DNA of 40,694 nt from Lentisphaeria bacterium (GTDB lineage Bacteria; Verrucomicrobiota; Lentisphaeria; JABSQK01; JAWLHB01): NCBI GenBank assembly GCA_041690595.1, contig JAWLHB010000005.1, positions 248,001 through 288,694 on the forward strand, in the 5' to 3' direction. Each line of letters starts with the position of its first letter. Position 1 is the first letter of the stretch. A program made the translations under genes and the position numbers. This document shows, one piece after another, positions 1,878 to 40,674 of the stretch. Below the pieces are notes generated by a model, which was not told where the DNA came from, made no database searches, and saw only the letters and a list, made by a program, of their open reading frames with translations.

Positions 1878-4800
1878 AGCACCTGCGCCATCTGTTGCTT
1901 GCCGCCGTCTGTATATTGCAGGTCGTCGCCGACGATCGCACCATGTCGTTCAATACGGAGGTGGCGGTGTTGCCGGCGCCCGGTGTCATGACCATCGACG
2001 GGGAGTGGGATGACTGGGATCTGAGCGGCGGGGTCTGGAGCTACAATTCGCCGATGATCACGGATCGGTACAGCGTCTGGACGCACCTGATGCACGACGG
2101 CAACGGGATCTACCTGCTGGCGCGCTACCATGATTTGACGCCCCTGCAGAATGCAGCGAGCGGGAAGGATTTCTCGGTCAGTTGGCGGGCGGACTGCTAT
2201 CAGGCGCGGGTGATTTTCGACGATCGGACGGCTGACGAGCACCAGATGCATGTGAACATGTACTATTCGAGCGTGGACAAGCAGCCGTACATGATCGTGA
2301 AGCATGGTGGTTTTCGGAGCAAGGCGCCGTATGACGAGACGGGTCCGGACCGGCCGGAACAGGCGGAGCGGTGGGGTGCGACGATGGCGGAGGCGGGTGG
2401 CGCGATCGCCTTCAAGGCGTGGCCGGATGGCAAGGGGTACACGATGGAAGCGTTCTGGCCGTGGAGTTATTGCCGGAGCAGCGGGGAGCCGCTGGCGGTG
2501 GGGGAGTCGTTTGTCTTCGGTACGGAAGCGATGTGGGGCAATGCGGATGGCACGATGCTCTCGCACCGCCTGGCGGACGGGATCAAGGACGACACGGTGA
2601 ACCGGATCTTCATGTTCCGCGCCCGCAATGGCTGGGGACGGGCGGTGATGCGCGAGCAGGGAAAGCTGGAGCTTGCGGAGCAGCAGGTGGCGCTGCACAA
2701 GGCGCGGCTGAAGCATTTTGTGGACTACGATACCCATGGCAGTGTGCCGATTGCGTATGACCTGCCGGAGAAGCGGGAGGTGAGCATTGTCATCGACAAT
2801 GCGGCGGGCGAGCGAGTGCGCAACCTCTTCGGCCAGTATCCACGGGAGGCGGGCAGTGTCGTCGACAACTGGGATTGCCTGGACGACGCGGGGAACCCGG
2901 TAGCGGCCGGCACCTACACGGCGAGCATCGTCCATCATCTGCCGATCGAGATGGAGTTTTACAACTCCGCCTACAGCTCGGCGACGCCGCCGTGGGTGAC
3001 GGAGGCGGGCAGCAAGCTGTGGGGCGCGAATCATGGGCATCCGACCTCGGTCGCCACGCGAGGAAAGGTGACGGTGTTGACCTTCACCGGGACGGAAGGG
3101 GGATCGGGGATACAGCTGATCGACGACAACGGCATCATCCAATGGGCGGATCAGCAGGAGTTTCTCGACGCGACGCTGGACGATGTATACGCGTACGGTC
3201 TCTGCCGTTCGAGTTGGCAGCAGCGCGTGCTGCTGGCGCGCTTTCGGTTGAAGGATGGGCAGCAGGTGCCGTTCGAGGATGCGGCGCGCACGCCCAACGT
3301 CACGCTTCTGCCGGATGACGAGGTCGGCATCACCGGGAGCATCGCCATGGCGGAGGGCAAACTCTGGGTTTGCATTCCGGAGCGCGAGTTGCTGCGGGTC
3401 AACCCGGTTACCGGTGAGGTGGAGCAGAGGTATCCGCTGGGGGACCTGGTGGCGGTGACGGATCGGGATGATCTTCTGTACGGGCTCCATGCGGACGGGC
3501 GGGTCACCAGAATGGATGGCGACGGCAAGGGAAGCGACCTTTTCCGGGTTGGAGGCCTGGCCCAGCCGATGCGCCTCGGCATCAGCCATGATGTGCAGCG
3601 ATTCGCCATCAGTGACTGGAGCCTCAATCAGGTGGTGGTGACCGATGCCAGTGGCCAACGGCTGCAGGCGATCGGGAGCGCCTGGTCGGGAGACGATCGG
3701 CCGGCGGGCACCTTCGTCGCGACGAATCTGGTGCAACCGCTGGGGGCGGATTTCGACCACGTGGGGCGGCTGTGGATAGCTGAAGCGAAGAAGACGTGCA
3801 AGCGGGTGACGCTGTGGAGCGCGGATTATGAGCTTGTGGACCAGTTCTGGGGGCAGGCGGATTATGGCGCGATGAGCGGCTTTCCGCTGACCTTCGACGC
3901 CACGCGTTTTGTGGCGCATGGCATCGAGTTCAAGCTGGATCCCACTCCCGACCCATGGCGCCGCAAGACGAACGAGCAGCCGCTCGCGTATCACCCCGAG
4001 TTGGCCCATGAGCGTGGACTGGTCTATCGGCATAACGGCCATGAGTATGCGTGCGGGGCTCCCGGTTTCAACAAGATGGATCACTTGAGCATCCTGAAGC
4101 GCGACAGCAACGGCGTCTTCCGGACGGTGGTGCGGCTGGAGCTGGCGGGGCGGGATAGCGCGGGCAGCGCCTGGGTCGATCGCAACGACAATGGGGCGCG
4201 GGACGATGACGAGGTGCTGGAGGGGTTGGACATTCGCGGCCTGTACTGGGCGAATGGTTGGGTGCGCCCCGATCTGGTTATCCTGACGACGGATGGTCGC
4301 CAGTTCACGCCGCAGGGTTATTCGCAGGGGGGCGTGCCGTTGTATGACTTTGGCGCACCGGAGACGGTCGCGAACTGGATAGCGTTTGCGGACCGGCAGG
4401 GGAGCAGTGGAACGCCGATCATGGATCTGGCGGGGAATGTCTCGAACGGCATTGTCTATCATACGACGGATGGGCGCCGTGGAAGCTGGCCGAACCGGTA
4501 CGGGCGTCATGACGCACCGTCGGCGCAGCGTGGGGTGCTGATCGCGCCGTTCCGCACGAATGGGATTGTCGAAGAGGTGCCGGGCGTGGGCAGCGTCGTG
4601 GCGCTCGGTGGGGATCGCGGCGAGTGGTTCCTGATGACGATGGACGGGATCTACCTGTCGAGCCTCTGCCAGGATGCGAAGGGGTCGGTGACACTCGACG
4701 AGAGTTATGTAGGGCAGGAGTCGTTTGGCGGCTTCATCTGGCGGGATAGTGAGAGCAGCGATGTTCTGGTGCAGCTCGGCGGCGCTTCGTACCGCCTTCT

Positions 4801-5614
4801 CAAGGTGAAGAACCTGGAGAGTTGCGTGAAGGAGAGCCGCACCCTGCAGGTGACGGCGGAGGCTATTGCGGCGGGGTCGCAAATCGCTCAGGATCGCCAG
4901 TCTCAAAGCGTGCGCGAGCCGGATTCGCTGCGCATCGCACGCATACGGCGGGCGCCGACGGAGGCCGCTCCGGTAATGCAGCCGCAGAGCCGCCCGCTGA
5001 TCGAGGGAGCGGTGGATGTGCGAGTCAGCGAGGAGGGGAATCCTTCGCGCTGGTGGCGGGCGGGGTTGGCCGTGCACAACCGGGATCTGATCGTCATGTA
5101 CCAGGTGGCCGATCCGTCGCCGTGGCAGAATGGGGCGGGCAGCTATACACATGCGTTTACCGGGGGCGATGCCGTGGATCTGCAACTCAACGTCCCCGGG
5201 CGTGGTGCGCTTCGCCTGCTGGTGGCGCCCATCGCCGGCAAGGCGACCGTCGTCTATTGGCAGACCGAGGCGGCGGAGCAGCATAACCCGATGCAGTACC
5301 AGGTGGCGAACAATCCCGGGAATGCGAGCGCGTTCGACGTCGTGAAGCGGCTGGACAACGCGACGGTCAAGGTCGCGACTGGTTTCAACGCTTACACGGT
5401 GCTGCTGAGCATACCGCTGGCGGAGTTGGGGTTGGATACAGCTCTGGGCAGTCAGATCAGCGGCATCGTCGGGGTGATCTTCTCCGATCCATCGGGGACC
5501 AATCGCGCCGCACGGCTTTACTGGCACGACAAGGAGACCGGCCTGGTCTCCGATGTGCCGAGCGAATCACGCCTCTCGCCGAAGCGCTGGGGCATTCTTT
5601 CAGTCGATAAATAG
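1874..5614 (+). CDS. Large secreted protein: CBM9-like N-terminus, FlgD Ig-like domain, NHL/beta-propeller repeats, C-terminal sugar-binding-like domain
   Basis: Start moved to ATG 1874 (ATGA overlap with the GntR stop, followed by signal peptide [13 protein letters not shown]). Motifs: 'IDGEWDDWD'; FlgD-like '[40 protein letters not shown]'; NHL-like '[17 protein letters not shown]'. Confidence 0.75.
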
Positions 5615-5639
5615 GTTCAACAGCAGAGGAGAAAAGAGC

Positions 5640-6473
5640 ATGAGCAGAGATCTTCAACAACAGCGGGGCTTCACCCTGATAGAGCTTCTGGTGGTCATCT
5701 CGATAATCGCCATTCTTGCCAGCATGCTGCTGCCGGCGCTGAGCAAGGCACGCGACACGGCGCGGCGCAGTACCTGCCTGAACAATGTCAAGCAGATCGG
5801 CTCGGGCATGTTCTTCTATGTTGGGGACCATGACAATGCGCTGCCGTTGCTGGGCCCGCACAGTCGTCTTGCCGGCGGCGACCATAACGGCGTGTACAGC
5901 TTTTACGTCATGTACTCGGACTACTTCGGTGGTTCGCTGACGAGCCACGCCAGTGGCGCCGGCGCCAGTGTGCGCTTCTACACGCAGGAGACCTTCGTCT
6001 GCCCGTCGAATATTCGCACGAGCAGCATCGGCTACAACTATTACCGCCTGCCTTACGCACAATGGTGCGGCAGCACGGCAAATTACCGGGTGACGATCGA
6101 GAAGACGATGGCGGCGGCGGAAAAGAAGCCGGTGCCGGGGCGCATCGCGGCAATGTGGAGCGACCGCTGCAACATCCTGAATGCCGGTAACAATGGTGGT
6201 CCGGAAGAGACGAATCATCGGGATCCTACCGGCTATCCGTCCGGCGGCAATGTGGTGAACATGGACGGCTCGGCGAAGTGGTTTCGCTACATCGGCAATG
6301 TCAACGGTGAGGATTCATTCGTCATCAACGGCGGCAGTGTGGGCGGTCATATCGCGGTGCCGAGCAACGGCGTCTGGCCGCGCTGCGAGGGAGACAGCAC
6401 CCTGAACATCGTCAGGAGCGACAACCTCTTCATGGGGAAGGGAAGCGGCAGCTTCTTTACGTACATGCAGTAA
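5640..6473 (+). CDS. Prepilin-type N-terminal cleavage/methylation protein (DUF1559-like) with variant C-terminal H-X9-DG motif
   Basis: '[39 protein letters not shown]'; 'FVCPS'; '[15 protein letters not shown]'; RBS agagga upstream of ATG 5640. Confidence 0.9.
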
Positions 6474-26864: not shown

Positions 26865-27029
26865 CCCTCAGCCCTCCTTCAGCCGCTGCGTTTGGCGATC
26901 CCACTTAAGTGAGCCCGACTTCCCAAAGAAGCAACCAACAATAAATAGCAGGAGCGGTCTCAGTATGGTATCACCCTGCCCCAACGCAACGCGATTGCCT
27001 CCCCGCGTCTCCTGCCCCTCCCCCGCTCG

Positions 27030-27255
27030 TTCTTTGCGATCTCTGCGCTCTTTGTGGTTAATCCTCTCGCGTCCCCAGCGCTCGCCGCCTCCATTCTTCT
27101 CATTCTTCCCGTTGCCCTTACCGTCCCCTCGCCCCAGCGCCCCACTTGCCACCCACCTGTCCGCCCTCCGTTGCGGCGCCTGCCCCCTCGCTTCCCTCGA
27201 CCTGCTCGCCTCGCTCCCTCGCAGACAAGGTCAATGAGGTCAACAAGGTCACCAA
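27030..27255. repeat. Cluster of 9-nt-period triple repeats (left boundary of the Rhs array)
   Basis: 27030-27066 is the reverse complement of gaggattaaccacaaagagcgcagagatcgcaaagaa; also cattcttct-cattcttcc and aaggtcaat-gaggtcaac-aaggtcacc. Confidence 0.7.
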
Positions 27256-27258
27256 GCT

Positions 27259-27797
27259 CGCCAGACGATGGCGTTGGCGCCGATGCTGCGCGGGGCACTG
27301 CGCAGCTTGCGGCCGATGGTGCTGTCGGCGGCATCCAAGAAGGCTCTGCACATGATGACATACGTCGACTGCGTCGCTTCCTGCCGCAGGTCGCAGCCCG
27401 CGTACATGAGGGTGGAGCCGAGTTCCGGATAGTCACCGGCGATCTCGGCGAACTGCTCGACCGGATCTTCGTCGGGCGGCAGTTCCTCGTTGTGCTGGGC
27501 CAGGACCTCGTCGCTGCTGCCTTCGAGGATGGAGTAGCCGTCGACGGCGAGCCGCGCGTTGTGGCGGACCGAGTGGGCTTCGAGGGCGACAGCCCCAACC
27601 CCCCAGATGAACCGGTCGCGCAGGCCGCCCTGGATGTCGTTCCGCAGGCGCAGCGGGATGCTCATCTGTACCCGGTCGCCGGTAACAGCGAGGGAGACAG
27701 GGGTGGCAAAGCGGTTGACCATCCCGGTGGATTTGGCGGCAGGAATGGTGAGGGTCATGCCGTCAAGAGTCGTGGTGGCATCTTCCGCCACCCACCC
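27259..27797 (-). pseudogene. Rhs cassette E: pre-core fragment only, truncated at both ends, no toxin tip
   Basis: Near-identical to ~35530-36067 ('AEDATTTLDG..ANAIVWR'); homology ends just before 'GFAYD'. Confidence 0.85.
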
Positions 27798-27880: not shown

Positions 27881-28330
27881 TTAACAAAGATCCAAGAACT
27901 CGCGTGCGTCCCTCACGATTAGGTCCAAGATATTTTCGGCCTTCTGCGAGATAATGGTTTGGGAACAAACATCCCATACAACCACTCGTCCGCCAGGATC
28001 GTCCGTGTCGACACAGTAATACTCGTCTCCCTCGTTGTTCAGCACGATAACGAGCGACTTCGGCAGACCAACTTGCCCTCGCTTAAGCTGCGTAAACCAT
28101 ATCCCATTTGGAACCCGGCCATTCCGAAAGTCCGTCCCGGCGATGCCGTAGAACTCCAAGGGGCCTTCTGCGATGGTCCCCCATGTCGTCAGGTACTCAA
28201 CAAACGACTCGGGGAACTCCACACCGAGGAACTCCTCCGCAGCAGACACGTATTCGCGAGATGCAGGGGTTCCGATGTCGAAAAAGCCGGGGTTGTCCTC
28301 GACCAGTTGCTTCAGGGTGTTGTCCATCAT
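27881..28330 (-). CDS. SMI1/KNR4 (SUKH) family immunity protein
   Basis: 'PASREYVSAAEEFLGVEFPESFVEYLTTWG', 'GDEYYCVDT'; TGATG coupling to the toxin D stop. Confidence 0.9.
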   Translation of the reverse strand: MMDNTLKQLVEDNPGFFDIGTPASREYVSAAEEFLGVEFPESFVEYLTTWGTIAEGPLEFYGIAGTDFRNGRVPNGIWFTQLKRGQVGLPKSLVIVLNNEGDEYYCVDTDDPGGRVVVWDVCSQTIISQKAENILDLIVRDAREFLDLC

Positions 28331-30375
28331 CAAAAGTCCTTTGCTCTATTCTTCCAGTACCTGTACTTCCAGCGATCGAAGGCCTTCTCCGCCTCGGTCT
28401 TTGCCCCGTCAGCCGAATAGCGGAAACTCCGTTTCGGTTCAGTCAGATGATGGACGGTCGTGGTGTTCTGAACATGAAATGTGCCTGCAACTTCAGCCAT
28501 GGCTCCAGGCTCTCGCTGGGTGAGATGGTGAAGATTGACCGATTCGCGGTCGAAGCCGATTGGGGCTCTTCCCTTCTGCATACGTTGGAGGTTGGTCAGT
28601 CCAGCGTCATCCAGGGCGTATGGATCGAATAGATCCCCGCGTCGATAGACACGTCTTCCCCCAACTTCAATCGGGTCGTCCCAGAACTTATAGTGTCTTG
28701 CCCCATCAAGATTGTCAAGCTGCGGCGCAGTTGCCTTTGCCGCTGCAGCGAGTTTTCTGGCTCGGCGGACATCGTTCAGGTCATCCGTGATGCTTGCCAG
28801 TCGGCCGATCGGGAACAAGGCCGCAGTCATTTCAATGCCAAGCTCTGTACCCACATAGACGGCGAAGTCAACCGCGATGTTCTGCGTTTCGCCAACGTGA
28901 CCGTGTAGTGCGAGACCAGTACGACCGTCTTCCGACTCTAGTGTCTGGTGCACACGTGCATCGCACACATCTCCGGCCTGGCGCCCCGCCGGTGCTTGAG
29001 GCAGAATCCGGACCTGTTGCCGGAGCGCATACATGGCGGCGGCCTCGAAATGCTCCTGTTTCCAGCCTGTTTTGAAGGCGACATTCTGCGTCCTTCCCTT
29101 AGCCACCACATACGCTTCAAAATCATCCAAGAACGCTTTCGCGTCGAGATGCTCGTTCTGCCCCAGCCACTGCGTCAGGTTCTCCACCATCTCCCCATAA
29201 GTGGTGCCGAGAGCGGCAGCGATCTCCCGGGCGTACACATCTGGTAGGTCAACCCCATTGGGTCGATGTACATCAAGGGGTTGTTGGCGCAGAAGACGCG
29301 GTCGGCGATGCCGAAGCGGCGGAGTTCCTTGAGGAAGTCGGGGTTGGTGAAGCTGCCAAGGAAGGGATCGTATTGGCGGTAGCGATAGTGGTATTGGGTG
29401 GCGACATCGTCCCATTCGCGGCCGTGATACCAATAGCGGTTGCGGAGACCATCGCCGGGGGCTTCGAGGCGGTACTTGCTGCGTTCGTTGCCGAAGGCAT
29501 CGTAGGCGCGTTGCTCGACGACGTTCCCGTTCGCGTCGACGATCTGGAGGACGCTGTTGACCTGGTCGGTGAGGTAGTAGTAGAGCTTGGGCGCTTTGCC
29601 GGGCCACTGATCCACAGCCGAACCCGTTGCGGGTGAGACAGCAAACCCAAAGGGTTTAGCGAGGCACGGCCGAGCGGCAACTAGCACCCAAGGCGTTTGT
29701 CGATAGTGGGATCGTCCCAGTAGGTGCGGGTGAAGTCGACGGTCCCATTACTGTCGAGATCGACGAGGTCGGCGACGACGTCCATGCCGAGGCCGTCATA
29801 GACGTAACGGGTGGTGGTCTCCGTTGGGGGTATGGTGTCGTTGAGGGTGCGTTCGGTGCGAACGCGGCTACCGAAAGCATCATAGAAGTGGCTGACCCCG
29901 CGCAGCACCTGGCCCCCACGCGAATCCTGCGCGCTCTTGAGGCGGCCTTCGGCGTCGTAGACAAAGGTCTGCCGATAGTTCCCTTCGTTGACCTCGACGA
30001 GGCGGCCGGCGTCATCGTAAGCGAAGCCGCGCCAGACGATGGCGTTGGCGCCGATGCTGCGCGGGGCACTGCGCAGTTTGCGTCCGATGGTGCTGTCGGC
30101 AGCATCCATGAAGGCTCTGCGCATGATGACATAAGTCGCCTGCGTCGCTTCCTGCCACAGATCGCTGCCCGCATACATGAGGGTGGAGCCGAGTTCCGGA
30201 TAGTCGTCGGCGATCTCGGCGAACTGCTCGACCGGCTCTTCGTCGGACGGCAACTCCTCGTTGTACTGGGCCAGGACATCATCGCTGCTGCCTTCGAGGA
30301 TGGAGTAGCCGTCGACGGCGTGCCGCGCGTTGTGGCGGACCGAGTGGGCTTCGAGGGCAACGGCCCCTATCCCCC
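28330..30375 (-). pseudogene. Rhs cassette D: core + LHH (HNH/EndoVII-fold) nuclease tip, interrupted by a 68-bp insertion and a 1-nt frameshift
   Basis: Core 'YYYLTDQVNS..YDAFG..NNPLMYIDPMG'; tip 'TNLQRMQKGRAPIGFDRESVNLHHLTQ' (28330-~29250) lies in a different frame. Confidence 0.88.
29616..29683 (-). mobile_element. 68-bp structured miniature insertion (REP/MITE-like), copy 1
   Basis: Absent from the homologous sites in cassettes B (~35180) and C (~32720); similar to 39433-39502; boundary ambiguous by 1 nt. Confidence 0.8.
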
Positions 30376-30485
30376 GGAAACCTCAACTCCGATACCTTAT
30401 CTGAAAGACTTCAGCAGGACCATACGTGCAAATAACCTGTTCACGTCAGCTTGGAAAATGCTGCCGCTTGATCAAGATTCCAAGC

Positions 30486-31346
30486 TCACATCCCCCTCTG
30501 CCAAATGTCGTGAAACACCTTAAAGATGGCTTCCCCGGCAACAGGACCCACCTGCTTCGCAAGATCAGCGCGATCCACCATGTTCTGAGGCGTGATGTTG
30601 AGCCGCTTTTCCCACACTCCAATCCATCTTGTAGCCAACTCTATCGCGCCGAAATCGCGCCTGGTCCGCACTTCCTTTTTGAAACAAGCCAAGGCTTTGG
30701 GCCAATCGCAGAACAAAAGGGTGTCCTCAGAAGATTTGCAGTCACTGAAGCGAAACTCATTAAAGGTACAGTCGATGAACGATGCATTGCTAAGATCGCA
30801 GTTTACCATGGAGGCTCCATGCACACCGCCAAATATCACGCCTCGAATTTCTCCCGTAAAGCGGCAACTATAAAAGCAACATTCACCCATTAGCGAATTG
30901 TTCCACTTCGTCTTATCAAACTGGCATCTTTCGAATCTACCGCCGAGACCAGTGGATCCGGACAAGTCAGATCGACTAAAGTCGCATCCTGAGTAGGAAC
31001 TGCCGTTCGCGCCAAGTCCCGAGCCGCGGAGCTTTGAGTCAGCAAAGGACACGTCCAGAAATGATGACTTGAAGTCCCCCAGAGCAAGCTGTGAGCCCTT
31101 GAAAGAACTGCTGGCAATGCTGGATTCAGCAAAGATCAACTTCTGGGCTCTCAGAAAACCGAAGTCGCAACTTGCGAGATTCAGACCTACTGGCCGGATG
31201 TTCGTCTCCAGCAGAATCCCTCGAAAATCCTCTTGTCCACTCTCCGTTACGCCAAACGGGCTGGAAACAATATCACCGCGAAAGAGCGACTCAAGGATCG
31301 ATGTGAAGCCAGACCATCTCTGCTGGATAGATTTATTTATCGACAT
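30486..31346 (-). CDS. Pentapeptide-repeat protein, putative immunity protein of cassette C
   Basis: Repeats such as 'DVSFADSKL', 'GCDFSRSDL', 'RCQFDKTKW', 'NCDLSNASFIDCTF'; starts 12 bp after the toxin stop with RBS; AT-richer than the host genes. Confidence 0.8.
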   Translation of the reverse strand: MSINKSIQQRWSGFTSILESLFRGDIVSSPFGVTESGQEDFRGILLETNIRPVGLNLASCDFGFLRAQKLIFAESSIASSSFKGSQLALGDFKSSFLDVSFADSKLRGSGLGANGSSYSGCDFSRSDLSGSTGLGGRFERCQFDKTKWNNSLMGECCFYSCRFTGEIRGVIFGGVHGASMVNCDLSNASFIDCTFNEFRFSDCKSSEDTLLFCDWPKALACFKKEVRTRRDFGAIELATRWIGVWEKRLNITPQNMVDRADLAKQVGPVAGEAIFKVFHDIWQRGM

Positions 31347-31357
31347 GGCGTCCCTCG

Positions 31358-33487
31358 TTATTTGTAGAGCAACGGCAGCAATACTTCGTATTTGTCACCG
31401 TACCTGTTTATATGTTCCGGCCAAGACCTCAGCGTAGTCAGATCGAAGCCGAAGCTTGCGCCTTGGTAGATGTCAACTCCACCAACTCCTTGTGGCGTTA
31501 TGGAAAGTTTGGACAGGCGTCCTGCAGCTTGCTCCTGCTCTATCAGCTGCTTTAGTATCCGATCTCTGGCTGTTCCCTCAAAAATGGCATGAGACCATTC
31601 ATTTCCCTTAATTGACATAAAATCGATCTCGCCCTGTCTAAGGTATGTAGCTGCAGATGATTGAAAAATCTGCTCTGTTCTTTCGGTCAACCCGATCAAT
31701 TGACGGTGCGTTCGGACAAGCTCCTTCGCCTCACTGAGTGACTTGGTCTTGCTTACTGCCTCAGCAATCGGTTCCCTTCCGGCGAGGCCGTAACGTCCAC
31801 CCAAATTACTCCCTGACCCGAGACGTCTGGCGCCTCTGGCCACATCATCAATTTTGCGCCAGACACCATCAGAATCAAGCACACAGAGAAAAATCCCTCC
31901 TGCCCAGACGTTGCCTGTTGTCTGCTCTGAGATCTCAAGAACGTTCCTGGTGATTATTCCATCCACTCGTTGTCCAGTCGCCACCTGTAACCCTGCGTGA
32001 AAACCTTCATCAGCAACCAAGATCCCGACTCCAAGCCTGGCGACAAGCGGAGTGATCCCAACTGCACCTACCGGCATGAGTATGGTGAGAATCGCGGTTC
32101 CAGTGCCGGTGAGTCGATTTCCCCACCGGACAGCTTCTTCTGTTGGGAGCGGATCGTCACCGGTTTCGGTTATGGCAGTAAGGAGGAAAGCACGTCTATG
32201 TGCCAGTCGGTGCGGTATACCAGCGGATGTAGCAGAGTCATATTCAAGATTGTACAGATATGGATCGAAGCCGTGCCTGTGCGCTCTTGACCTCGCCGCA
32301 TCCCCCATTATCTCCTCCCCTTTCTGCTTCAACCAGGCGGTCAGGCGTCCCCAAAATAACCCCAACGGGTCGATGTACATCAAGGGATTGTTGGCGCAGA
32401 AGACGCGGTCGGCGACGCCGAAGCGGCGGAGTTCCTTGAGGAAGTCTGGGTTGGTGAAGCTGCCAAGGAAGGGATCGTATTGGCGGTAGCGATAGTGGTA
32501 TTGGGTGGCGACGTCGTCCCACTCGCGGCCGTGATACCAATAGCGGTTGCGGAGACCGTCGCCGGGGGCTTCGAGGCGGTACTTGCTGCGTTCGTTGCCG
32601 AAGGCGTCGTAGGCGCGTTGTTCGACGACGTTGCCGTTCGCGTCGACGATCTGCAGGACGCTGTTGACCTGGTCGGTGAGGTAGTAGTAGAGCTTGGGCG
32701 CCTTGCCGGGCCATTGATCGATGAACCCGATGCGCTTGTCGATGGCGGGATCGTCCCAATAGGTGCGGGTGAAGTCGACGGTGCCGTCACTGTCGAGATC
32801 GACGAGGTCGGCGACGACGTCCATGCCGAGGCCGTCATAGACGTAACGGGTGGTGGTTTCCGTTAGGGGGATGGTGTCGTTGAGGGTGCGTTTGGTCCGT
32901 ACGCGGCGACCGAAAGCATCATAGACGTGGCTGACGCCGCGCAGCCCCTGAGCAGAGCCGTCGACCACACGCGAATCCTGCGCGCTCTTGAGGCGGCCTT
33001 CGGCGTCATAGACAAAGGTCTGCCGATAGTTCCCTTCGTTGACCTCGACGAGGCGGCCGGCGTCATCGTAAGCGAAGCCGCGCCAGACAATGGCGTTGGC
33101 GCCGATGCTGCGAGGCGCACTGCGCAGCTTGCGCCCGATGGTGCTGTCGGCGGCATCCATGAAGGCTCTGCACATGATGACATACGTCGACTGCGTCGCT
33201 TCCTGCCGCAGGTCGCAGCCCGCGTACATGAGGGTGGAGCCAAGTTCCGGATACTCGCCGGCGATCTCGGCGAACTGCTCGACCGGATCTTCGTCGGGCG
33301 GCAACTCCTCGTTGTACTGGGCCAGGACATCATCGCTGCTGCCTTCGAGGATGGAGTAGCCGTCGACGGCGAGCCGCGCGTTGTGGCGGACCGAGTGGGC
33401 TTCGAGGGCGACAGCCCCAATCCCCCAGATGAACCGGTCGCGCAGGCCGCCCTGGATGTCGTTCCGCAGGCGCAACGGGATGCTCAT
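31358..33487 (-). CDS. Rhs cassette C: orphan core + hydrophobic linker + putative PD-(D/E)xK-like nuclease tip
   Basis: Core ends at 'NNPLMYIDPLG' (~32360); homology to cassette B begins at ~33521; tip 'GVDIY..FDLTT..WPEHINRYG'. Confidence 0.85.
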   Translation of the reverse strand: MSIPLRLRNDIQGGLRDRFIWGIGAVALEAHSVRHNARLAVDGYSILEGSSDDVLAQYNEELPPDEDPVEQFAEIAGEYPELGSTLMYAGCDLRQEATQSTYVIMCRAFMDAADSTIGRKLRSAPRSIGANAIVWRGFAYDDAGRLVEVNEGNYRQTFVYDAEGRLKSAQDSRVVDGSAQGLRGVSHVYDAFGRRVRTKRTLNDTIPLTETTTRYVYDGLGMDVVADLVDLDSDGTVDFTRTYWDDPAIDKRIGFIDQWPGKAPKLYYYLTDQVNSVLQIVDANGNVVEQRAYDAFGNERSKYRLEAPGDGLRNRYWYHGREWDDVATQYHYRYRQYDPFLGSFTNPDFLKELRRFGVADRVFCANNPLMYIDPLGLFWGRLTAWLKQKGEEIMGDAARSRAHRHGFDPYLYNLEYDSATSAGIPHRLAHRRAFLLTAITETGDDPLPTEEAVRWGNRLTGTGTAILTILMPVGAVGITPLVARLGVGILVADEGFHAGLQVATGQRVDGIITRNVLEISEQTTGNVWAGGIFLCVLDSDGVWRKIDDVARGARRLGSGSNLGGRYGLAGREPIAEAVSKTKSLSEAKELVRTHRQLIGLTERTEQIFQSSAATYLRQGEIDFMSIKGNEWSHAIFEGTARDRILKQLIEQEQAAGRLSKLSITPQGVGGVDIYQGASFGFDLTTLRSWPEHINRYGDKYEVLLPLLYK

Positions 33488-33564
33488 CTCAACCCGGTCG
33501 CCGGTTACAGCGAGGGAGACACTTTGCGTCGTAAAGCTTGCCCTTGGATGAACTCGGCTTCGTA

Positions 33565-33957
33565 TCAGACGTCTGTCTTAAGCAGTTGACCAGCGTGGAG
33601 TGCAATAAGACCGGGAATCTGGGCCTCGGCGAGGGTGAATTCTTGATCGTTGATTGCTTCTGCTTGATACAGACCAAGAAGGTAGCCACAACACAGAGCA
33701 AAGAACAATCGAATGTTATTTCCGCTCGGTCCGTACAGAGAAAGATCACCCGGACGATACTCAGCATCGAGCCGCTGACGCAGAAAGGCGAAGTGGTTTG
33801 GCCCCCATTCCTCAGTGGGAGAATGGTGTGAAAATCCAACGATTGCAGTCTTAACCGTCAGATCGTCCTCCGGGTTTGGTGACATCAACTGACGGGCCAT
33901 CCGTATCTCGCGGCCAAAGACAGGCAAGAGTTTCTTAAGTTCATCATAGACATGCAT
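33565..33957 (-). CDS. Hypothetical protein, putative immunity protein of cassette B
   Basis: 130-aa ORF starting 12 bp after the toxin B stop; role inferred from position only. Confidence 0.65.
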   Translation of the reverse strand: MHVYDELKKLLPVFGREIRMARQLMSPNPEDDLTVKTAIVGFSHHSPTEEWGPNHFAFLRQRLDAEYRPGDLSLYGPSGNNIRLFFALCCGYLLGLYQAEAINDQEFTLAEAQIPGLIALHAGQLLKTDV

Positions 33958-33968
33958 GTTAGTTAGCC

Positions 33969-36905
33969 TCAGTCGGGGAAGGGAATGCCCAAGCTCGCGT
34001 AGTACCTCCTAAGGTGAACAAGCCGCGTCTCGTTAGGAAGGGCGTTCCATTGCGCGATTGTTATCCCTAAGTCATCCGTGATGTGGCTTCGGAGAGAGGC
34101 TTGAAAACCGCCTTTCCCAGTATGAAAGTTTTGGCCGCCGGGGACCTTCCCTCCGGCATTGTCGTTTCTTACGGGAATGGTGGGACCATCCACGTAGTGT
34201 GGGTCGACTCTGCCCAAAGGCGGATCAAGATGGTGGTTATCGTACCCAGGAATCCTGCTCTGCTTGGCTTCATTATAAGGTCTCACCTCGCCGATGACCG
34301 CTGGGGTCTCTGGGACACTCGTGTCTGGGGTACTATGCTTTACGATATCATCAAATCGGTCCGATCCAACCTCTTCCGCGAGTTCCTGGACCATCTCATT
34401 CGCTTCTCGAGCAACGTGGGTTCCGGGAGTGACCGTGGTGTCCAGATACTTGGCATAGCTGCCATTGGGAATCCACTTGAGCGCCTTCCTGAACCCCCAT
34501 CTGACTGCATCGCCAAGAACGGGCACAAAACCCACAACTCCACCGGCAACCATAACGGAGCCAACCAGAATATGCCCATCGGCAATCGCGCAAATCCCAA
34601 GTACAACGTCAGCACCATCAAGGGCGATGCCGGTGGGCGTGAACGAAAGCCCCACGTCGATATAAAGCGGCCTGTCGAGCAGAACCTGAGAAAATGCCTC
34701 CGGCTCGCGCGATCTTAGGATTCTGCCGCTCATACTGAAATGGCTCGACATGAAGACTGGATCACCCGTGGAGAATCGGGCATTGTCCACATCGGCAATA
34801 CTGGGTGGTGGCTCGAACAGCCCCATGGGGTCGATGTACATCAAGGGGTTGTTGGCGCAGAAGACGCGGTCGGCGATGCCGAAGCGGCGGAGTTCCTTGA
34901 GGAAGTCTGGGTTGGTGAAGCTGCCAAGGAAGGGATCGTATTGGCGGTAGCGATAGTGGTATTGGGTGGCGACATCGTCCCATTCGCGGCCGTGATACCA
35001 ATAGCGGTTGCGGAGGCCGTCGCCGGGGGCTTCGAGGCGGTACTTGCTGCGTTCGTTGCCGAAGGCATCGTAAGCGCGTTGCTCGACGACGCTGCCGTTC
35101 GCGTCGACGATCTGGAGGACGCTGTTGACCTGATCGGTGAGGTAGTAGTAGAGCTTGGGCGCTTTGCCGGGCCACTGATCGATGAACCCGATGCGTTTGT
35201 CGATAGTGGGATCGTCCCAGTAGGTGCGGGTGAAGTCGACGGTGCCGTTACTGTCGAGATCGACGAGGTCGGCGACGACGTCCATGCCGAGGCCGTCATA
35301 GACGTAACGGGTGGTGGTTTCCGTTAGGGGGATGGTGTCGTTGAGGGTGCGTTTGGTCCGTACGCGGCGACCGAAAGCGTCGTAGACGTGGCTGACGCCG
35401 CGCAGCACCTGGCCCCCACGCGAATCCTGCGCGCTCTTGAGGCGACCTTCGGCGTCGTAGACAAAGGTCTGCCGATAGTTGCCTTCGTTGATCTCGACGA
35501 GGCGGCCGGCGTCATCGTAAGCGAAGCCGCGCCAGACGATGGCATTGGCGCCGATGCTGCGCGGGGCGCTGCGCAGCTTGCGGCCGATGGTGCTGTCGGC
35601 GGCATCCAAGAAGGCTCTGCACATGATGACATACGTCGACTGCGTCGCTTCCTGCCGCAGGTCGCAGCCCGCATACATGAGGGTGGAGCCAAGTTCCGGA
35701 TACTCGCCGGCGATCTCGGCGAAGTGCTCGACCGGATCTTCGTCGGGCGGCAACTCTTCATTGTGCTGGGCCAGGACATCCTGGCTGCTGCCTTCGAGGA
35801 TGGAGTAGCCGTCGACGGCGAGCCGGGCGTTGTGGCGGACGGAGTGGGCTTCGAGGGCAACGGCCCCTATCCCCCAGATGAACCGGTCTTGCAGGCCACC
35901 CTGGATGTCGTTCCGCAGGCGCAGCGGGATGCTCATCTGTACCCGGTCGCCGGTAATAGCGAGGGAGACAGGGGTGGCAAAGCGGTTGACCAGGCCGGTT
36001 GACTTGGTGGCAGGAATGGTGAGGGTCATGCCGTCAAGGGTCGTGGTGGCATCTTCCGCCAGCCACCCGTTGAGGCTGACGGCGACCGGCGCGCCGTCGA
36101 CGATGGCGTTAACCGCAGGGGTGCCCATCTCCACGATCAGCCCATGACCGGTCCCACCGACGAGGATCTCGTGGAAGGTGGTGGTGGGCTGGCCGGTGAG
36201 CTTAAGACTATGGTCATGGACGACGTTGCTCTCTTCGTCGACAAGCGTGACGTTGACATTAAGGCGCCCCGGCCCGCGACGCTCCAGGCTGTACGTGGCG
36301 GTGTACCACGCATCGACACTCAGACGATTTACGTCGTCAAACGGTACGCTCTGCTCGAGCCTGCCGTCGAAGACGCCAGGCAGTCCTTCATCCGGTACCT
36401 TGACCTGAAAGACTTCAGCCTCAATCGGGACGGGGTAGACGGGGATGGTGGTAAAGAGCCCGCCGTCATCGGTGTCGACCAGCCCCCAACTGAAGGTATT
36501 GTCGAACTGGCTCTGGCCGGCGATGGCGGAGATGGTGAGGCTGATCGTGAGGTATTCGCCGATGGAGGTCAGGGGCACCTCGGGGAAGTCGGCAACCAGA
36601 CGTCCGGAATTGTGGAGCGTGTCGGAAATGCCGAAGCGGATCCCGGTACTGCCGTTGTGATCGGTGATCGAGGCCGAGGCGCCGCTACTGCCGGCGAAGG
36701 TCCAGGCCACGTCGAGCGGGTCGAGCCCATCGGTCATGCCGCCATCGGTAAACGAATCGTCGACCAAGGTGGTATCGACGAAGATGTAGTCGTCCGTGTG
36801 GTCGTCATCGTCTTCGTCATTCACGTCGAGAACGAACTGGCGTCTGTTCAACGTGACATTGTCGACCTGCACGAAGTGGCCGCGGCCGGCGACAGCGAGG
36901 GCCAT
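33969..36905 (-). CDS. Rhs cassette B: 5'-truncated Rhs with acidic beta-rich domains, RHS core and putative His-Me-finger (HNH-type) nuclease tip
   Basis: Frame stays open upstream to ~37130 with no ATG/GTG/TTG start; core ends 'IDPMG' (~34821); pre-toxin-like 'GVVGFVPVLGD'; tip 'YDNHHLDP..GPTIPV..FHTG'. Confidence 0.85.
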   Translation of the reverse strand: MALAVAGRGHFVQVDNVTLNRRQFVLDVNDEDDDDHTDDYIFVDTTLVDDSFTDGGMTDGLDPLDVAWTFAGSSGASASITDHNGSTGIRFGISDTLHNSGRLVADFPEVPLTSIGEYLTISLTISAIAGQSQFDNTFSWGLVDTDDGGLFTTIPVYPVPIEAEVFQVKVPDEGLPGVFDGRLEQSVPFDDVNRLSVDAWYTATYSLERRGPGRLNVNVTLVDEESNVVHDHSLKLTGQPTTTFHEILVGGTGHGLIVEMGTPAVNAIVDGAPVAVSLNGWLAEDATTTLDGMTLTIPATKSTGLVNRFATPVSLAITGDRVQMSIPLRLRNDIQGGLQDRFIWGIGAVALEAHSVRHNARLAVDGYSILEGSSQDVLAQHNEELPPDEDPVEHFAEIAGEYPELGSTLMYAGCDLRQEATQSTYVIMCRAFLDAADSTIGRKLRSAPRSIGANAIVWRGFAYDDAGRLVEINEGNYRQTFVYDAEGRLKSAQDSRGGQVLRGVSHVYDAFGRRVRTKRTLNDTIPLTETTTRYVYDGLGMDVVADLVDLDSNGTVDFTRTYWDDPTIDKRIGFIDQWPGKAPKLYYYLTDQVNSVLQIVDANGSVVEQRAYDAFGNERSKYRLEAPGDGLRNRYWYHGREWDDVATQYHYRYRQYDPFLGSFTNPDFLKELRRFGIADRVFCANNPLMYIDPMGLFEPPPSIADVDNARFSTGDPVFMSSHFSMSGRILRSREPEAFSQVLLDRPLYIDVGLSFTPTGIALDGADVVLGICAIADGHILVGSVMVAGGVVGFVPVLGDAVRWGFRKALKWIPNGSYAKYLDTTVTPGTHVAREANEMVQELAEEVGSDRFDDIVKHSTPDTSVPETPAVIGEVRPYNEAKQSRIPGYDNHHLDPPLGRVDPHYVDGPTIPVRNDNAGGKVPGGQNFHTGKGGFQASLRSHITDDLGITIAQWNALPNETRLVHLRRYYASLGIPFPD

Positions 36906-37226
36906 GCCGCGGAAGGAGCCGTTGTGATTGGCAACCGAGCCGCTCAGGCTCTCTCCCCAGCCACTGCTGGTGACGGCAAGGCCATTGGCGGTGCGCTGGA
37001 CATGCAGGGTGAGCGTATGCGCCTGCGGATCCCGGATGCCGCCGTTGAGGGTGCCTTCCGACAGGACAGTGTGAGCGCCAAGTGGAATCAGGGGCTCGCC
37101 GTCATCACCGCAAACGCATTTGCATCCGCCTCAAGAAGGCCGCCGCAAGATTATCAATTCTGCGTTTTCGCTACCCAGAAATAACAGTCGGTAGCAACCG
37201 TCTCGACCAGCGTCTTGTTCCCAGTG

Positions 37227-38135
37227 TCAATCATCATTATCATCAAAATCTTCCGACTTCAGCAAGAGCTTCACACCTGACTCAGCTAACCATTTCGGTA
37301 AATGGCTCAGCGGATTTCCGACCAGATTAATCCGTTTCAGCAAACGCAGCTCCCTAAGCCACTCCGGAATCTGAGTAATTCGATTGCGAGCCAAATCAAT
37401 ATCCTCGAGTTGGGTGCAAAGACGCAAGCTAGTCGGAATATTGGTTAGACCCGAACCGGATGCCGCAATGCTCCTGAGTGACTCGGGTAGCATTCCATTA
37501 AGTGCTGCTGAATCGCAAGCAACCATAGCCAATTCCTCTAGCTTCTTCGCCTTCTGAAGCTCATTCATCAACGCGGCGGTGTTCTTGCAGAATGCCATGT
37601 TGACCGTCCTTAGCTCTGGCCACATATCAAGGTCGAATGAATCAAAATCCCCGATGTCGCTAACGGTCAGCTGGCGAACAGCCAGCTTGCTGGCAACCTT
37701 CGGGAAAGTCAATGCTCCTGCCTCAACTCTAAGATTAGAAAGCGTCGGTGGCGCGCAATTCAGTTCATTCAGCGCAATGTGCTGACTTGACCTTACCCAA
37801 AGCATCGTCAATATAGATGCACTCCAAAACACACCATCCATCTGATGAAGCACTGGTGAACGTGCGCTGAACACGGTCAGTTTTGGGAATGCACTCAATG
37901 ATACAGGAAGTACCGTCATGGTCTTGCATTCTATGCCCAGTATCTCCATATGTTTTGAGCCAATGAACCTTAAGTCACGCAATCGTTTGCAGCTTATATG
38001 TAACCCCTTGAGTCTGGAGAATCTGGAAAGCTCATCCTTGATGCTCTCCAGATCATCAGTTCCCACCATCAGGTACTCGATTTGATCCGGCGACTCTATA
38101 TCGCGACTGAAGTTGACCCACTTCGCAGCAGTCAT
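37227..38135 (-). CDS. Leucine-rich-repeat protein, putative immunity protein of cassette A
   Basis: 'LEDIDLARNRITQIPEWLRELRLLKRINLVGNPLSHLP'; GGAG upstream of ATG 38135 (alternative GTG 38150); lies directly after toxin A. Confidence 0.82.
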   Translation of the reverse strand: MTAAKWVNFSRDIESPDQIEYLMVGTDDLESIKDELSRFSRLKGLHISCKRLRDLRFIGSKHMEILGIECKTMTVLPVSLSAFPKLTVFSARSPVLHQMDGVFWSASILTMLWVRSSQHIALNELNCAPPTLSNLRVEAGALTFPKVASKLAVRQLTVSDIGDFDSFDLDMWPELRTVNMAFCKNTAALMNELQKAKKLEELAMVACDSAALNGMLPESLRSIAASGSGLTNIPTSLRLCTQLEDIDLARNRITQIPEWLRELRLLKRINLVGNPLSHLPKWLAESGVKLLLKSEDFDDNDD

Positions 38136-38163
38136 TGCACTCTTCTCCACAATTGATTAGTGT

Positions 38164-39429
38164 CTAAAATCCAAAGTAAGCACCAACTCTGGGATCTGCG
38201 TCTATAACGTCGGCGTCAATTTGCACGTCCACACCACCAGGACTTCGCCGGCCGCCTTCAGCCTGGACATAATGCCTTAGGAGTTCAGATCCTAAGTGTT
38301 TTGAAATGCTCTCTGATAACGCCCAATATCCATCAGCCGTCCCCTTGGTAATATCATAAATCGTATCTCCTTCTACAATGCTTGATAAAGCATATGCCCA
38401 CGCCTGTGATTCCGACATGCCTCTATCTCTGGCCTGCTGATGGATAACCGACACGAAGGCAATGCTCAGTACACCTGGAGCGCCCTTTGCGGCCTTTATT
38501 CCATATTTCTTCAGGACGGGTTTGATGGAATCTATGAACTTCGGGTTACGTGCTAGTCTTTCGGCCATACGGTTAGCATAAAGCATCTCCACGACGTTTC
38601 GCCCCTTCCGCATTTCAATCAGGCGCCGGGGATCCATTTCCGTGCGAAGTATAACATGTGCAGCCCATTCGGAATCTATACCTGCATGTCCAGTCTTCAG
38701 ATCAAGGACTACATCTGTAATATCACGTATGGAACGCTGGGATACAGGCTTGCTTAGATCAACAGGCTGCTTCGTAATGATTATATCTGGCACTTTGTTA
38801 CCATTTCCCCATCTGCCATTGTATGACCTACGTTTCACTAATTTCCCTTCTTTATTTATACCAATCTCGGTAAATATATATCCTTTCAGATCGGCAAAGT
38901 CTTTTTCTAGAACTTCGTTCACTCTTGATTGGAAGTCAGCATGAATTAAGCTGCCCGCACTTGTTGCATCACCGCCAGTATGCAGCAGATAGTCATCCCT
39001 TACACTCAGTAACTGGTTGCTAATCTCCTGAACCTTAACCAAGAACTCATCTAGTCTACCGGCAGCAATTTCTTTGCCGAATGGATCCATCTCCTGCAGG
39101 CCATTGTTGTTGAACGCAACATAGTTCCCTGGGCCCATGGGGTCAAGGCGGATGTCCCAGTCGGGGCCGGTGAACTGGCCGAGTTCGGGGATGTAGGTAC
39201 GGAAGCGATAGTAGTAGTGGCCGGCGTGCGCGTCCCACTCGCGGCCCTGGAAGCGATAGCGATTCGGCACGTCGAGCTTGTCGTAGGAGCGATCGAGTTG
39301 GAGGTTGCCGAAGGCATCGTAGACATAGTTGGCGACGACGGAGCCATCCTCCTCCAGCACCTGCAGGATGCTCCCGACCTGGTCGCAGAGGTAATAGTAG
39401 AGCTTGTGATTGTTGCCGGAGAGATCCAT
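38164..39429 (-). CDS. Rhs cassette A: divergent RHS core + restriction-endonuclease-fold (PD-(D/E)xK) toxin tip
   Basis: 'YYYLCDQVGS..YDAFGN..RFQGREWD..YYYRFRTY..DPFG' (ends ~39076); tip 'GSLIH..FTE..VPDIII..VLDLKTG'. Confidence 0.85.
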   Translation of the reverse strand: MDLSGNNHKLYYYLCDQVGSILQVLEEDGSVVANYVYDAFGNLQLDRSYDKLDVPNRYRFQGREWDAHAGHYYYRFRTYIPELGQFTGPDWDIRLDPMGPGNYVAFNNNGLQEMDPFGKEIAAGRLDEFLVKVQEISNQLLSVRDDYLLHTGGDATSAGSLIHADFQSRVNEVLEKDFADLKGYIFTEIGINKEGKLVKRRSYNGRWGNGNKVPDIIITKQPVDLSKPVSQRSIRDITDVVLDLKTGHAGIDSEWAAHVILRTEMDPRRLIEMRKGRNVVEMLYANRMAERLARNPKFIDSIKPVLKKYGIKAAKGAPGVLSIAFVSVIHQQARDRGMSESQAWAYALSSIVEGDTIYDITKGTADGYWALSESISKHLGSELLRHYVQAEGGRRSPGGVDVQIDADVIDADPRVGAYFGF

Positions 39430-39432
39430 GTC

Positions 39433-39502
39433 AGCCGAACCCGCATGGCGAGTGAGACAGCAAACCCGAAGGGTTTAGTGAGGCAAGGCCGAGCGGCAAC
39501 TA
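39433..39502 (-). mobile_element. 70-bp structured miniature insertion (REP/MITE-like), copy 2
   Basis: Homologous to 29616-29683; removal joins 'IDERIG' in frame to '(D/Y)MDLSG'. Confidence 0.8.
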
Positions 39503-39592
39503 GCCGATCCGTTCGTCGATGCCCCTGCCGTTCCAGTAGTTCACGTAGACCCGCACGTGGTTGACGCTGCCGTTGCCGCCGCGGTCGAGGTG
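39503..39592 (-). pseudogene. Upstream remnant of the cassette A Rhs
   Basis: 'HLDRGGNGSVNHVRVYVNYWNGRGIDERIG' aligns with 'LVDLDSNGTVDFTRTYWDDPTIDKRIG' of cassette B; cut off at the repeat cluster. Confidence 0.7.
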
Positions 39593-39601: not shown

Positions 39602-39975
39602 CACCACGGAGGCACGGAGACACGGAGATGGGGCGGTGTAACTCGGAGGGACACGAAGAAAGCTCAGAGGATTAACCGCAAAGAGCGCAGAAAGGGCAAG
39701 GCCGCAGATAGGCACCTTGGCTCATGTGGTTCACCACGAAGAACTCGAAGGGACACGAAGGAGGATTAACCACAAAGAACGCAAAGAGCGCAACGAGCAG
39801 GCAAGTCTTGGCAGCTGCACGGAATTGAGTTCATCGCAATCAGGATGATTGCGGCCACCTCGGCAAGCTGGAATGCTGGACGCGGGGTGTAGCCGGGAGG
39901 GCGGGGATGGGCGGAGTTATGCAGGAGGATTAACCACAAAGAACGCAAAGATTGCAAAGAGCGGGCAAGGGGAAG
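39602..39975 (+). repeat. Cluster of 9-nt-period triple repeats (right boundary of the Rhs array)
   Basis: gaggattaacc(a/g)caaag.. units at 39667, 39761 and 39925; caccacggaggcacggagacacggag at 39602; caccacgaag.. at 39732. Confidence 0.75.
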
Positions 39976-40125: not shown

Positions 40126-40674
40126 ATGAGGGGACTGAGCAAGCGGATGCGGCGGTTCGCGGGGGAGTATGTGAAGGATTTCTGTGCGGCAAAGGCGGCG
40201 CTGCGGGCGGGTTATGCGGAGTCGTTCGCAAAGGCACGAGCGTCGGAGTTGCTGCAGGATGGGCGGGGTTCGGGGAACCGATGTGCCGGGACCGAGGAAT
40301 CGACCGAGGTTTTGGGATGGGGCGAGGCGAGGGAGGCCACTCAGGAGAGTGGCATGTGCGGGGGGCGCGGGAGGAGTGATGGAGGTTGGGAAGGGGCAAC
40401 GTCCAACGCCGGTGCCACTCAGGCGAGTGGCGTGTGCGGGGGTCGCTGGAGGAGTGATGGAGGTTGGGAAGGGGCAACGCCCAACGCCGGGGCCACTCAG
40501 GCGAGTGGCGTGCCCAGGAATGCGACCGAGGAATTGACCGAGGTTTTGAGCGTGACCGAGGAGGGAATGGCAGGGCCGTTGAGGGCGATGGCGCTAGTCG
40601 CGGTTCGGAGAACCCCTCCCAACTATGTATGCCTTCAAGTGTTCATGGCTAAAAGATCTCCAGATTTTTTATGA
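40126..40674 (+). CDS. Terminase small subunit-like N-terminal HTH (~45 aa) fused to repeat-derived sequence; possibly a pseudogene
   Basis: 'LSKRMRRFAGEYVKDFCAAKAALRAGYAESFAKARASELL' matches the phage TerS pattern L-x-x-K/R-x-x-x-F-x-x-EY-x-x-D..AA-x-RAGY. Confidence 0.6.
   Translation: MRGLSKRMRRFAGEYVKDFCAAKAALRAGYAESFAKARASELLQDGRGSGNRCAGTEESTEVLGWGEAREATQESGMCGGRGRSDGGWEGATSNAGATQASGVCGGRWRSDGGWEGATPNAGATQASGVPRNATEELTEVLSVTEEGMAGPLRAMALVAVRRTPPNYVCLQVFMAKRSPDFL
40291..40548. repeat. REP-like palindromic tandem array, 78-bp period, same family as 480-677
   Basis: GCCACTC-AGG(A/C)-GAGTGGC at 40336, 40414 and 40492, flanked by accgaggaat-N-gaccgaggtttt motifs. Confidence 0.8.

Follow-up and report, generated by a model that had tools for sequence, protein, structure and literature searches.

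The window analysed here is a stretch of 40,694 nucleotides from a Lentisphaeria bacterium (GenBank assembly GCA_041690595.1, contig JAWLHB010000005.1, positions 248,001 to 288,694 of the forward strand). It forms the end of contig C5 in a host assembly of 8.1 Mb and 99 contigs, and it carries on its minus strand two uninterrupted Rhs genes, B and C, and two Rhs cassettes, A and D, each of which is split just before its Rhs core by a copy of one short structured element (Table 1). With a probability that we put at roughly 0.6, the two inserts are copies of a new element, similar to repetitive extragenic palindromic (REP) sequences and miniature inverted-repeat transposable elements (MITEs), which is structured, inserts without duplicating its target and has here disrupted silent orphan Rhs cassettes.

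The Rhs locus and its two inserts

Comparison of the window with itself showed that D, B and a fragment at 27259-27797 are progressively 5'-truncated copies of C, with D being 92-96% identical to B and C on either side of its insert. The fragment, an Rhs remnant of 539 nt downstream of the SUKH gene, matches the central part of C and B at 94-96% identity. Cassette A belongs to a separate Rhs lineage that shares 71% identity with D over this region, and its Rhs homology stops at 39589, which makes A a 5'-truncated orphan. When the genome was searched by tblastn with the core, contig C28 proved to begin with an A-type gene that carries no insert; its identity to A is 96.6% before and 97.0% after the insert of A. 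This gene (C28:1-1936) is truncated by the contig start, encodes the same toxin as A (91% identity in DNA) and has a similar leucine-rich-repeat gene behind it; short core-only orphans lie at C24:112589-112717 and C4:2-130. Both interrupted cassettes have the make-up of Rhs orphan cassettes, namely a truncated 5' end, a retained core, a toxin of their own and an adjacent immunity-type gene, and both lie near a longer rhs gene. Because the flanks are nearly identical to those of uninterrupted genes (94-97% for D against C, 97% for A against C28), both inserts arose within otherwise near-identical paralogs.

Table 1. Features of the Rhs region of the window and divergent relatives of the element elsewhere in the host genome. 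Positions are those of the window unless a contig is named; R1 and R2 are the covariance models described in the text, R2 having been built partly from copies D and A, so that its bits for these two copies are not independent.
Feature	Position	Strand	Remarks
Element copy D	29616..29683	-	68 nt; 5' TAG, three hairpins, 3' TTCGGCT; inside orphan Rhs cassette D; R1/R2 102.6/85.7 bits
Element copy A	39433..39502	-	70 nt; inside orphan Rhs cassette A; R1/R2 105.7/89.6 bits
Upstream Rhs part of orphan D	29684..30378	-	92-93.5% identical to B and C; RHS_repeat; ends at the element TAG; no N-terminal region of its own
Rhs core of D	29250..29615	-	122 codons, GTG...DPMGL; 95.8% identical to C, 94.5% to B; stop 24 codons past DPMGL
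Toxin region of D	28333..29249	-	C-terminal LHH (HNH/EndoVII-type) nuclease, PF14411, 1.6e-20; frame differs from that of the core
SUKH/SMI1-KNR4 family gene	27884..28345	-	PF14567, 3e-18; likely immunity gene of cassette D
Empty native site in gene B	32718..32731	-	B uninterrupted, 5'-truncated
Rhs gene B	31358..33487	-	709 aa; lacks the N-terminal ~390 aa of C; uninterrupted
Empty native site in gene C	35179..35192	-	ATCGGGTTCATCGA (Ile-Gly-Phe-Ile-Asp)
Rhs gene C	33969..36905	-	978 aa from ATG; only window copy with a long N-terminal part; uninterrupted
Leucine-rich-repeat gene	37230..38156	-	After cassette A; candidate immunity gene; duplicated after the C28 gene
A frame downstream of element	38164..39429	-	Intact, 421 aa: Rhs core and toxin region without Pfam match; 91% DNA identity to the 3' part of the C28 gene
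Rhs-like sequence upstream of element A	39503..39589	-	87 nt, all there is; 96.6% identical to C28
Divergent relative	C5:51035-51106		Between amidoligase and glutamine amidotransferase genes, on the strand opposite to them
Divergent relative	C46:35237-35313

The two inserts are homologous and lie on the minus strand, as an earlier note made from the sequence of the window had proposed with correct coordinates. They are identical at 63 of 70 aligned columns and differ by five substitutions and a 2-nt indel, the latter adding one base pair to the last hairpin; the difference that the note had described in its second hairpin is likewise real, a compensated insertion of one base pair together with a G-U pair. 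Their likeness greatly exceeds chance: a BLAST match between the copies has an E value of 5e-20 against the 8.1-Mb genome, in which a further full-length match is absent. Around these inserts the Rhs hosts are divergent, the flanks of A and D being 52% identical over the 87 nt upstream and 64% over the 300 nt downstream.

Both inserts sit at a conserved run of codons, Arg-Ile-Gly-Phe, shortly ahead of the Rhs core. The native site reads ...CGC ATC GGG TTC ATC GAT CAG... in the D-type genes B and C and ...CGG ATC GGC TTC GTC GAC ATG GAT... in the A-type gene of C28, and since these uninterrupted paralogs keep the conserved Ile-Gly-Phe-(Ile/Val)-Asp codons, the element is not ancestral. Compared with the native genes the net change is +68 nt in D and +64 nt in A, no target duplication is present, and at both sites the 4-5 bases after the T^T of the native site have been lost or replaced. 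Cassette A is without the native TTC GTC codons. In D the codons beside the insert are altered (ATC to CTT, TTC to TGC and ATC to GTG), with five substitutions in the 12 bases flanking the insert and the next ~50 nt on each side identical to C.

The inserts disrupt the frames that they entered. The TAG at the 5' end of the element is in frame with the upstream Rhs sequence in both D and A, and in both a potential start codon follows within 0-3 nt, a GTG (29615-29613) immediately 3' of copy D and an ATG (39429-39427) that begins 3 nt past copy A. The note had taken both start codons as homologous to the ATC of B and C, which does not hold for A: its ATG is the native Met codon, two codons past the Ile/Val position of the uninterrupted C28 paralog. 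Exact removal of the element, 68 nt from D or 70 nt from A, does regain a single frame as had been claimed, but not the native gene sequence. In D a second frame break lies exactly at the core/toxin DPMGL junction (29178-29260) and leaves the LHH nuclease out of frame; this change could be decay or an assembly error.

The sequencing runs listed for this DNA comprised one DNA run (0.05 word share) and none of RNA. Contigs from the DNA run cover the Rhs region in part, with the empty site of gene C but neither element; no joint was seen at either element, and these contigs are neutral with regard to excision and expression. Upstream of orphan A, at 39640-39969, there are short direct and inverted repeats (42-60 nt), one arm of which also lies at 27025-27075, near the Rhs fragment at 27 kb. 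These repeats may mark cassette borders.

A family of structured repeats in the class

Genomes are labelled G000 (the host genome), G007, G014, G245, G429 and G445, and extracted loci carry an L with a number. Two covariance models were used, R1 built from Rhs copies D and A and R2 rebuilt from seven copies. In the host genome blastn found only D and A, and R1 gave no strong match beyond them; R2 together with nhmmer --max returned four matches in total, D, A and two divergent relatives (Table 1), such that the Rhs pair accounts for two of the four detectable copies. R1 also gave weak matches over the full length in two genomes from the same order; these are intergenic, are not tRNAs and lie outside Rhs genes. 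R2, with 150 candidates scored per genome and E<=1, found at least 41 matches in G007 and at least 31 in G014. Across the class, a survey of 151 sampled genomes with R2 (32 candidates scored per genome, cut-off E<=1e-4) identified six element-bearing genomes: the host (at least 2 copies), G007 (at least 23), G014 (at least 14), G245 (at least 22), G429 (1) and G445 (1). The copies in G245, G429 and G445 are independent of the model and score 36-56 bits with R2. Copies D and A belong to this family, matching the model over its full length and carrying its conserved GTTGYC, CYGUCUC and UCGGCU motifs. The majority of family copies are intergenic or lie within other selfish DNA, and their orientation to neighbouring genes varies.

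Searches by sequence similarity did not extend this distribution. BLAST with the element in 40 relatives gave short chance matches only, the exact central 25-mer had 0 matches in collections of genomes and metagenome contigs, and neither the element nor the MITE of G007 described below was matched in a plasmid collection. A gapped pattern gave 6 and 7 matches in these two collections, in unrelated phyla; they score at most 21 bits with R2 and were taken as chance, ~12 being the number that we estimate to be expected in the genome collection.

The family unit is ~64-80 nt long and consists of three hairpins and a closing helix. Its conserved motifs are (A/G)GTTGYC-RYTC at the 5' end, UCRYU and CYGUCUC between hairpins and UCGGCU at the 3' end, while the hairpin sequences themselves vary freely among aligned copies. 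Folding of the single sequences is no better than that of shuffles (z -0.46 and -1.03), and it is the family alignment that bears out the conserved structure suggested earlier. In 34 copies (29 distinct), 84 cells are changed on both sides of a pair, where shuffles give 19.6+-3.6 and sliding of the partners no more than 14; the alignment is model-fitted and hence leans towards structure. The same alignment has 86% of cells paired and changes on both sides at 14 of 19 pairs. The three hairpins, which these compensatory changes support, are plain by eye. The closing helix contains U-G pairs and is therefore compatible with one strand only. In contrast, the family lends no covariation to the terminal pairing UAGUUG/CGGCUG that the note had drawn: the number of pairs altered on both sides is 0, no better than in shuffles.

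The ends of the element have no inverted symmetry. By inspection, no register brings the 5' end TAGTTGCCGC into identity with the reverse complement of the 3' end AGCCGAACCC, and the inverted core sites RYYYAAC ... GTTRRRY of an integron attC site were not found at the element ends; GTT-type words do occur at both ends, in direct and not inverted orientation (GTTGCCG ... GTTCGGC). Nor does the element match known RNAs. At the Rfam gathering score the window is without a match to an intron, ribozyme or other family, and at E<=10 nothing relevant appeared on the element or on one relative. A tRNA-like identity was rejected, with ARAGORN calling no tRNA at any copy and loops of 3-5 nt. A scan for promoters and terminators around copy A found nothing within the element, and, in agreement with the earlier remark that no clear Shine-Dalgarno (SD) sequence precedes the restart, no SD-like or promoter-like site lies in or beside it. 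The family is absent from Rfam and is a previously undescribed small structured insertion element. Within the published literature that was searched, nothing came up on structured inserts that Rhs orphans share at one fixed codon, nor on such repeats in bacteria of the Planctomycetes-Verrucomicrobia-Chlamydiae (PVC) group.

Mobility and comparison with known elements

The family is mobile. In G007 one subfamily sits in a ~265-bp element with terminal inverted repeats (TIRs), a TIR-MITE in which presence/absence polymorphism of the module is found, as it is between Rhs D and B/C and between A and C28. BLAST of this MITE within G007 located 11 places with the module and other places where the two halves abut without it. 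Four aligned copies show that empty MITEs read GGTCAT|TCCTGAC and that filled ones have gained 64 nt (TGTCATTC...CTCGGC) with no duplication and an ambiguity of 1 nt. The MITE itself, seen at L040 1345-1625 and nine other loci in forms with and without the 64-nt module, has the terminal inverted repeats GTTTCTGTCCTGAAATAG.... Elsewhere the module lies within ~155-nt repeats (G014) and ~130-nt repeats (G245), and units may be nearly tandem: in L048 the next unit begins directly after TCGGCT, and in L056 after an 8-nt spacer (TCGGCTGA-CGATTGAC). In L056, L057 and L058, all from G007, arrays of GATTGAC-like heptamers flank several copies, and the 5' end of the element resembles the heptamer.

Other selfish DNA has been struck as well. 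The single G429 copy splits an IS91-type transposase gene (L092, G429:C334 560-1920) with its TAG in frame and a net length that is not a multiple of three; no empty paralog of this site was found. The ends of the G429 IS91 are without family motifs. The G445 copy lies antisense within a group II intron (L093, G445:C433 980-2810), near the end of its open reading frame, the intron being identified by Pfam RVT_1 and GIIM and by Rfam models for D1-D4 and domain V-VI. Reverse transcriptases near two G014 copies were discounted, as they are outside the shared ~155-nt repeat unit.

Several known systems resemble this element in part. REP sequences and bacterial interspersed mosaic elements (BIMEs) are mobilised by REP-associated tyrosine transposases (RAYTs, of the Y1 HUH type) and consist of a single imperfect palindrome with a GTAG head. 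The element is like them in being short, structured, strand-asymmetric and non-coding, and in having tens of mostly intergenic copies without TIRs, but its unit is a three-hairpin, four-helix one of 64-80 nt with conserved single-stranded joints, it flanks no Y1 gene and its distribution is patchy (6 of 151 genomes). The palindrome-associated elements derived from IS200/IS605 (PATEs) move by 'peel and paste' single-strand transposition. They share with the element hairpins near both ends, lack of target duplication and strand-specific G-T/G-U pairs, and exact excision would be possible in principle; however, the heterogeneous flanks here hold no conserved 4-5-nt target 5' of the left end, and an IS200-like copy has unrelated end hairpins. 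Classical MITEs are likewise small, non-autonomous and amplified in some genomes, and in G007 the module even resides within a true one, but the module itself has neither TIRs nor a target duplication. Finally, the palindromic elements of Rickettsia that lie inside protein-coding genes stay in frame and are translated; the element is also a small structured repeat inside open reading frames, yet it introduces a stop codon in frame, shifts the reading frame and is found in silent or selfish genes.

Hairpins near both ends, structure specific to one strand, and the lack of both TIRs and target duplication are features of HUH/Y1-type single-strand elements, and as a guess the element may move by such a single-strand mechanism. 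An IS200-like TnpA gene beside one G014 copy (L104) was rejected as a partner: its end hairpins are unrelated and the element lies outside the IS200-like unit.

The double hit at one Rhs codon

We infer the cause of the double hit from short similarities between the element and its targets. The D-type native site has CGGGTTC, which is element positions -11 to -5, and the A-type native site has TCGGCT, the last six bases of the element, after which a further unit starts within 0-8 nt in tandem arrays elsewhere and at once in L048. Both 6-7-nt similarities trace to a single conserved motif of the protein; this would account for the element having struck two diverged Rhs lineages at one place. 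The similarities suggest that homology-guided or end-mimicking insertion explains the double hit, in part only. On this account a small non-autonomous element, structured on one strand, patchy in the class and amplified in some genomes, has inserted without target duplication into intergenic DNA, into other selfish DNA and, here, into two orphan Rhs cassettes, where the likeness of the native Rhs motif to its 3' end would have guided it. The in-frame TAG, the net +68/+64 nt and the replacement of 4-5 target bases break the Rhs frame, and D would have decayed further. The damage would be tolerated because orphan cassettes, as such, are silent, and survival in silent orphans would explain why only copies D and A remain.

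A number of observations weigh against this account. The similarities are to common words, TCGGCT occurring 7187 times and CGGGTTC 1237 times in the genome, and the coincidence at the same codon lacks a quantitative explanation. Three non-Rhs sites with the 14-mer ATCGGSTTCRTCGA are empty, and the majority of family copies elsewhere are without a TCGG-like 5' flank. The two Rhs junctions are untidy, with replaced bases and the five substitutions by D, unlike the clean pair of filled and empty MITEs in G007. The TAG is in frame in three of three sense-oriented coding insertions, for which the chance is ~1/27 if they are independent, and the conserved nucleotides of the helix junction could equally mark a functional RNA. 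As for an enzyme, no transposase is linked to the family. Y1_Tnp genes occur in all six genomes that bear the element, but 6 of 12 genomes of the order that lack it have them too, and at 20 loci around Y1_Tnp genes in the six genomes no flanking copy was detected at E<=1 or E<=10, the exception being one copy 260 nt outside an IS200-like element. A RAYT/HUH transposase flanked by the repeat, for which the earlier note had suggested a search, was accordingly not found at these loci.

Nor does the association with Rhs extend to other genomes. In a phylum sample of 401 genomes, the 3' module of the element with Lys-Leu-Tyr-Tyr-Tyr codons 15-50 nt after it was found in the host and in none of the 400 others, and 11 Rhs cores found in G007, G014 and G429 with the C core as query all lie in long stop-free frames and are uninterrupted. 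The note had reasoned that many copies scattered through unrelated DNA with no enrichment at Rhs sites would make this an ordinary dispersed repeat. Most copies are indeed outside Rhs genes and no Rhs link appears elsewhere, but two of the four host copies stand at the homologous Rhs codon. Among the three options that the note had offered, a REP/MITE-like element that prefers a site and switches toxin cassettes off fares best, in part: the dispersed family is real, with dozens of mostly non-Rhs copies and one clean polymorphism, and a site preference is plausible though unproven. Off-switching is unsupported, since both carriers are already promoter-less 5'-truncated orphans.

Less probable, though a serious competitor, is a single insertion into one Rhs cassette, from which the element would then have reached the second lineage when Rhs cores, known recombination substrates, underwent gene conversion or template switching. 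Rhs orphans are reported to exist for the sake of recombination (Koskiniemi 2014, PMC3967940; Poole 2011, PMC3150448). Both junctions are replacements that lose the same 4-5 bases after T^T, the substitutions by D, clustered and bordered on either side by ~50 nt free of change, have the look of a mosaic tract, and the G of D's GTG agrees with the A-type ATG and not with D's own ATC; conversion or template switching from an unseen Rhs copy fits the untidy junctions and this cluster equally well. Yet flanks of A and D that are 52-64% identical, with upstream identity runs of at most 6 nt, make a poor substrate for homologous recombination, the bases to the left of the D insert are not A-type, and the copies differ at 7 of 70 positions, more than either carrier differs from its empty paralog. 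On balance, direct insertion guided by similarity is somewhat more likely than conversion.

It is unlikely that the element is a co-opted functional module that ends translation of the Rhs shell, allows separate expression of core and toxin, or acts as a regulatory or processing RNA, for instance a four-helix RNA that cleaves itself or binds a protein, uncoupling the two halves. Such a role would suit the in-frame TAG with a start codon 0-3 nt away in both copies, the derivation of D's GTG from ATC, the intact 421-aa frame downstream in A, the presence of the module in different larger repeats of different genomes, and the strongly conserved joints of a four-helix junction with covarying helices, which are unusual for plain repeats. 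The note's second option, stand-alone translation of core and toxin, is nonetheless weakened at both loci: a restart in D stops 24 codons past DPMGL and cannot yield the nuclease, and the ATG of A is native, pre-existing in C28. The want of an SD-like or promoter-like site at copy A, the inconsistent orientation to neighbouring genes in other genomes, the absence of a match to ribozyme or other RNA families of Rfam even at E<=10, and the unsplit Rhs genes elsewhere also speak against a function. Similarly doubtful is a more far-reaching proposal in which the element would be the founding example of new duplication-free four-helix mobile modules (64-72 nt, single-stranded DNA or RNA), with a 3' end that mimics the Rhs codon motif, so that it would home into Rhs cassettes, be able to leave them again and serve as a reversible off-switch or separator for spare toxin modules, or else its conserved four-way junction would be a new catalytic or protein-recruiting RNA.

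Far less probable still is the third option, a precisely removable intervening sequence (by DNA excision, splicing or ribosome bypass) that would let full Rhs protein be made: removal does give a single frame and insertion without target duplication makes exact excision conceivable, but the junctions left behind are non-native (A short of two conserved codons, D with altered ones), the element is far too small for a group I or II intron and matches no intron or ribozyme family of Rfam, and the joined product would remain a fragment because both carriers are without the N-terminal part. Translational bypassing is known from phage T4 gene 60 and the mitochondrial byp elements, and a stop codon at the start of a structured gap within a gene, its length not a multiple of three, is reminiscent of it; however, the gap here is 68-70 nt, target bases are replaced relative to the native paralogs, and take-off and landing codons are unmatched in the correct frame, the take-off TGC of D matching a TGT in the wrong frame only and the GGC landing site of A being followed by TGA.

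If the inserts are indeed copies of a mobile repeat in spare cassettes, the Rhs side of the finding is ordinary, selfish DNA within silent genes, and apparently 'split' Rhs genes would be explained in annotation without recoding. Rfam has no entry for the family, which has more structure than is usual among repeats, moves without duplicating its target and is linked to no known enzyme; it would be small and tractable enough for finding a new way of mobilisation, or a new structured motif of RNA or single-stranded DNA, in a bacterial class that has received little study. Homology-guided insertion, for its part, could be put to a concrete test on the double hit at a single conserved codon.

The window also holds a dispersed repeat unrelated to the element. 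Tandem arrays at its opposite ends, 435-682 (85 bp x2.9) and 40335-40512 (78 bp x2.3), have in common a core of ~67 nt that is 83-87% identical and contains a GGCCACTC..GAGTGGC hairpin. Further from the Rhs genes, 5553-6473 encodes a DUF1559 protein with a prepilin-type N-methylation motif and 1835-5614 a 1259-aa protein with a FlgD-Ig domain, both of kinds that are typical of PVC-group bacteria.

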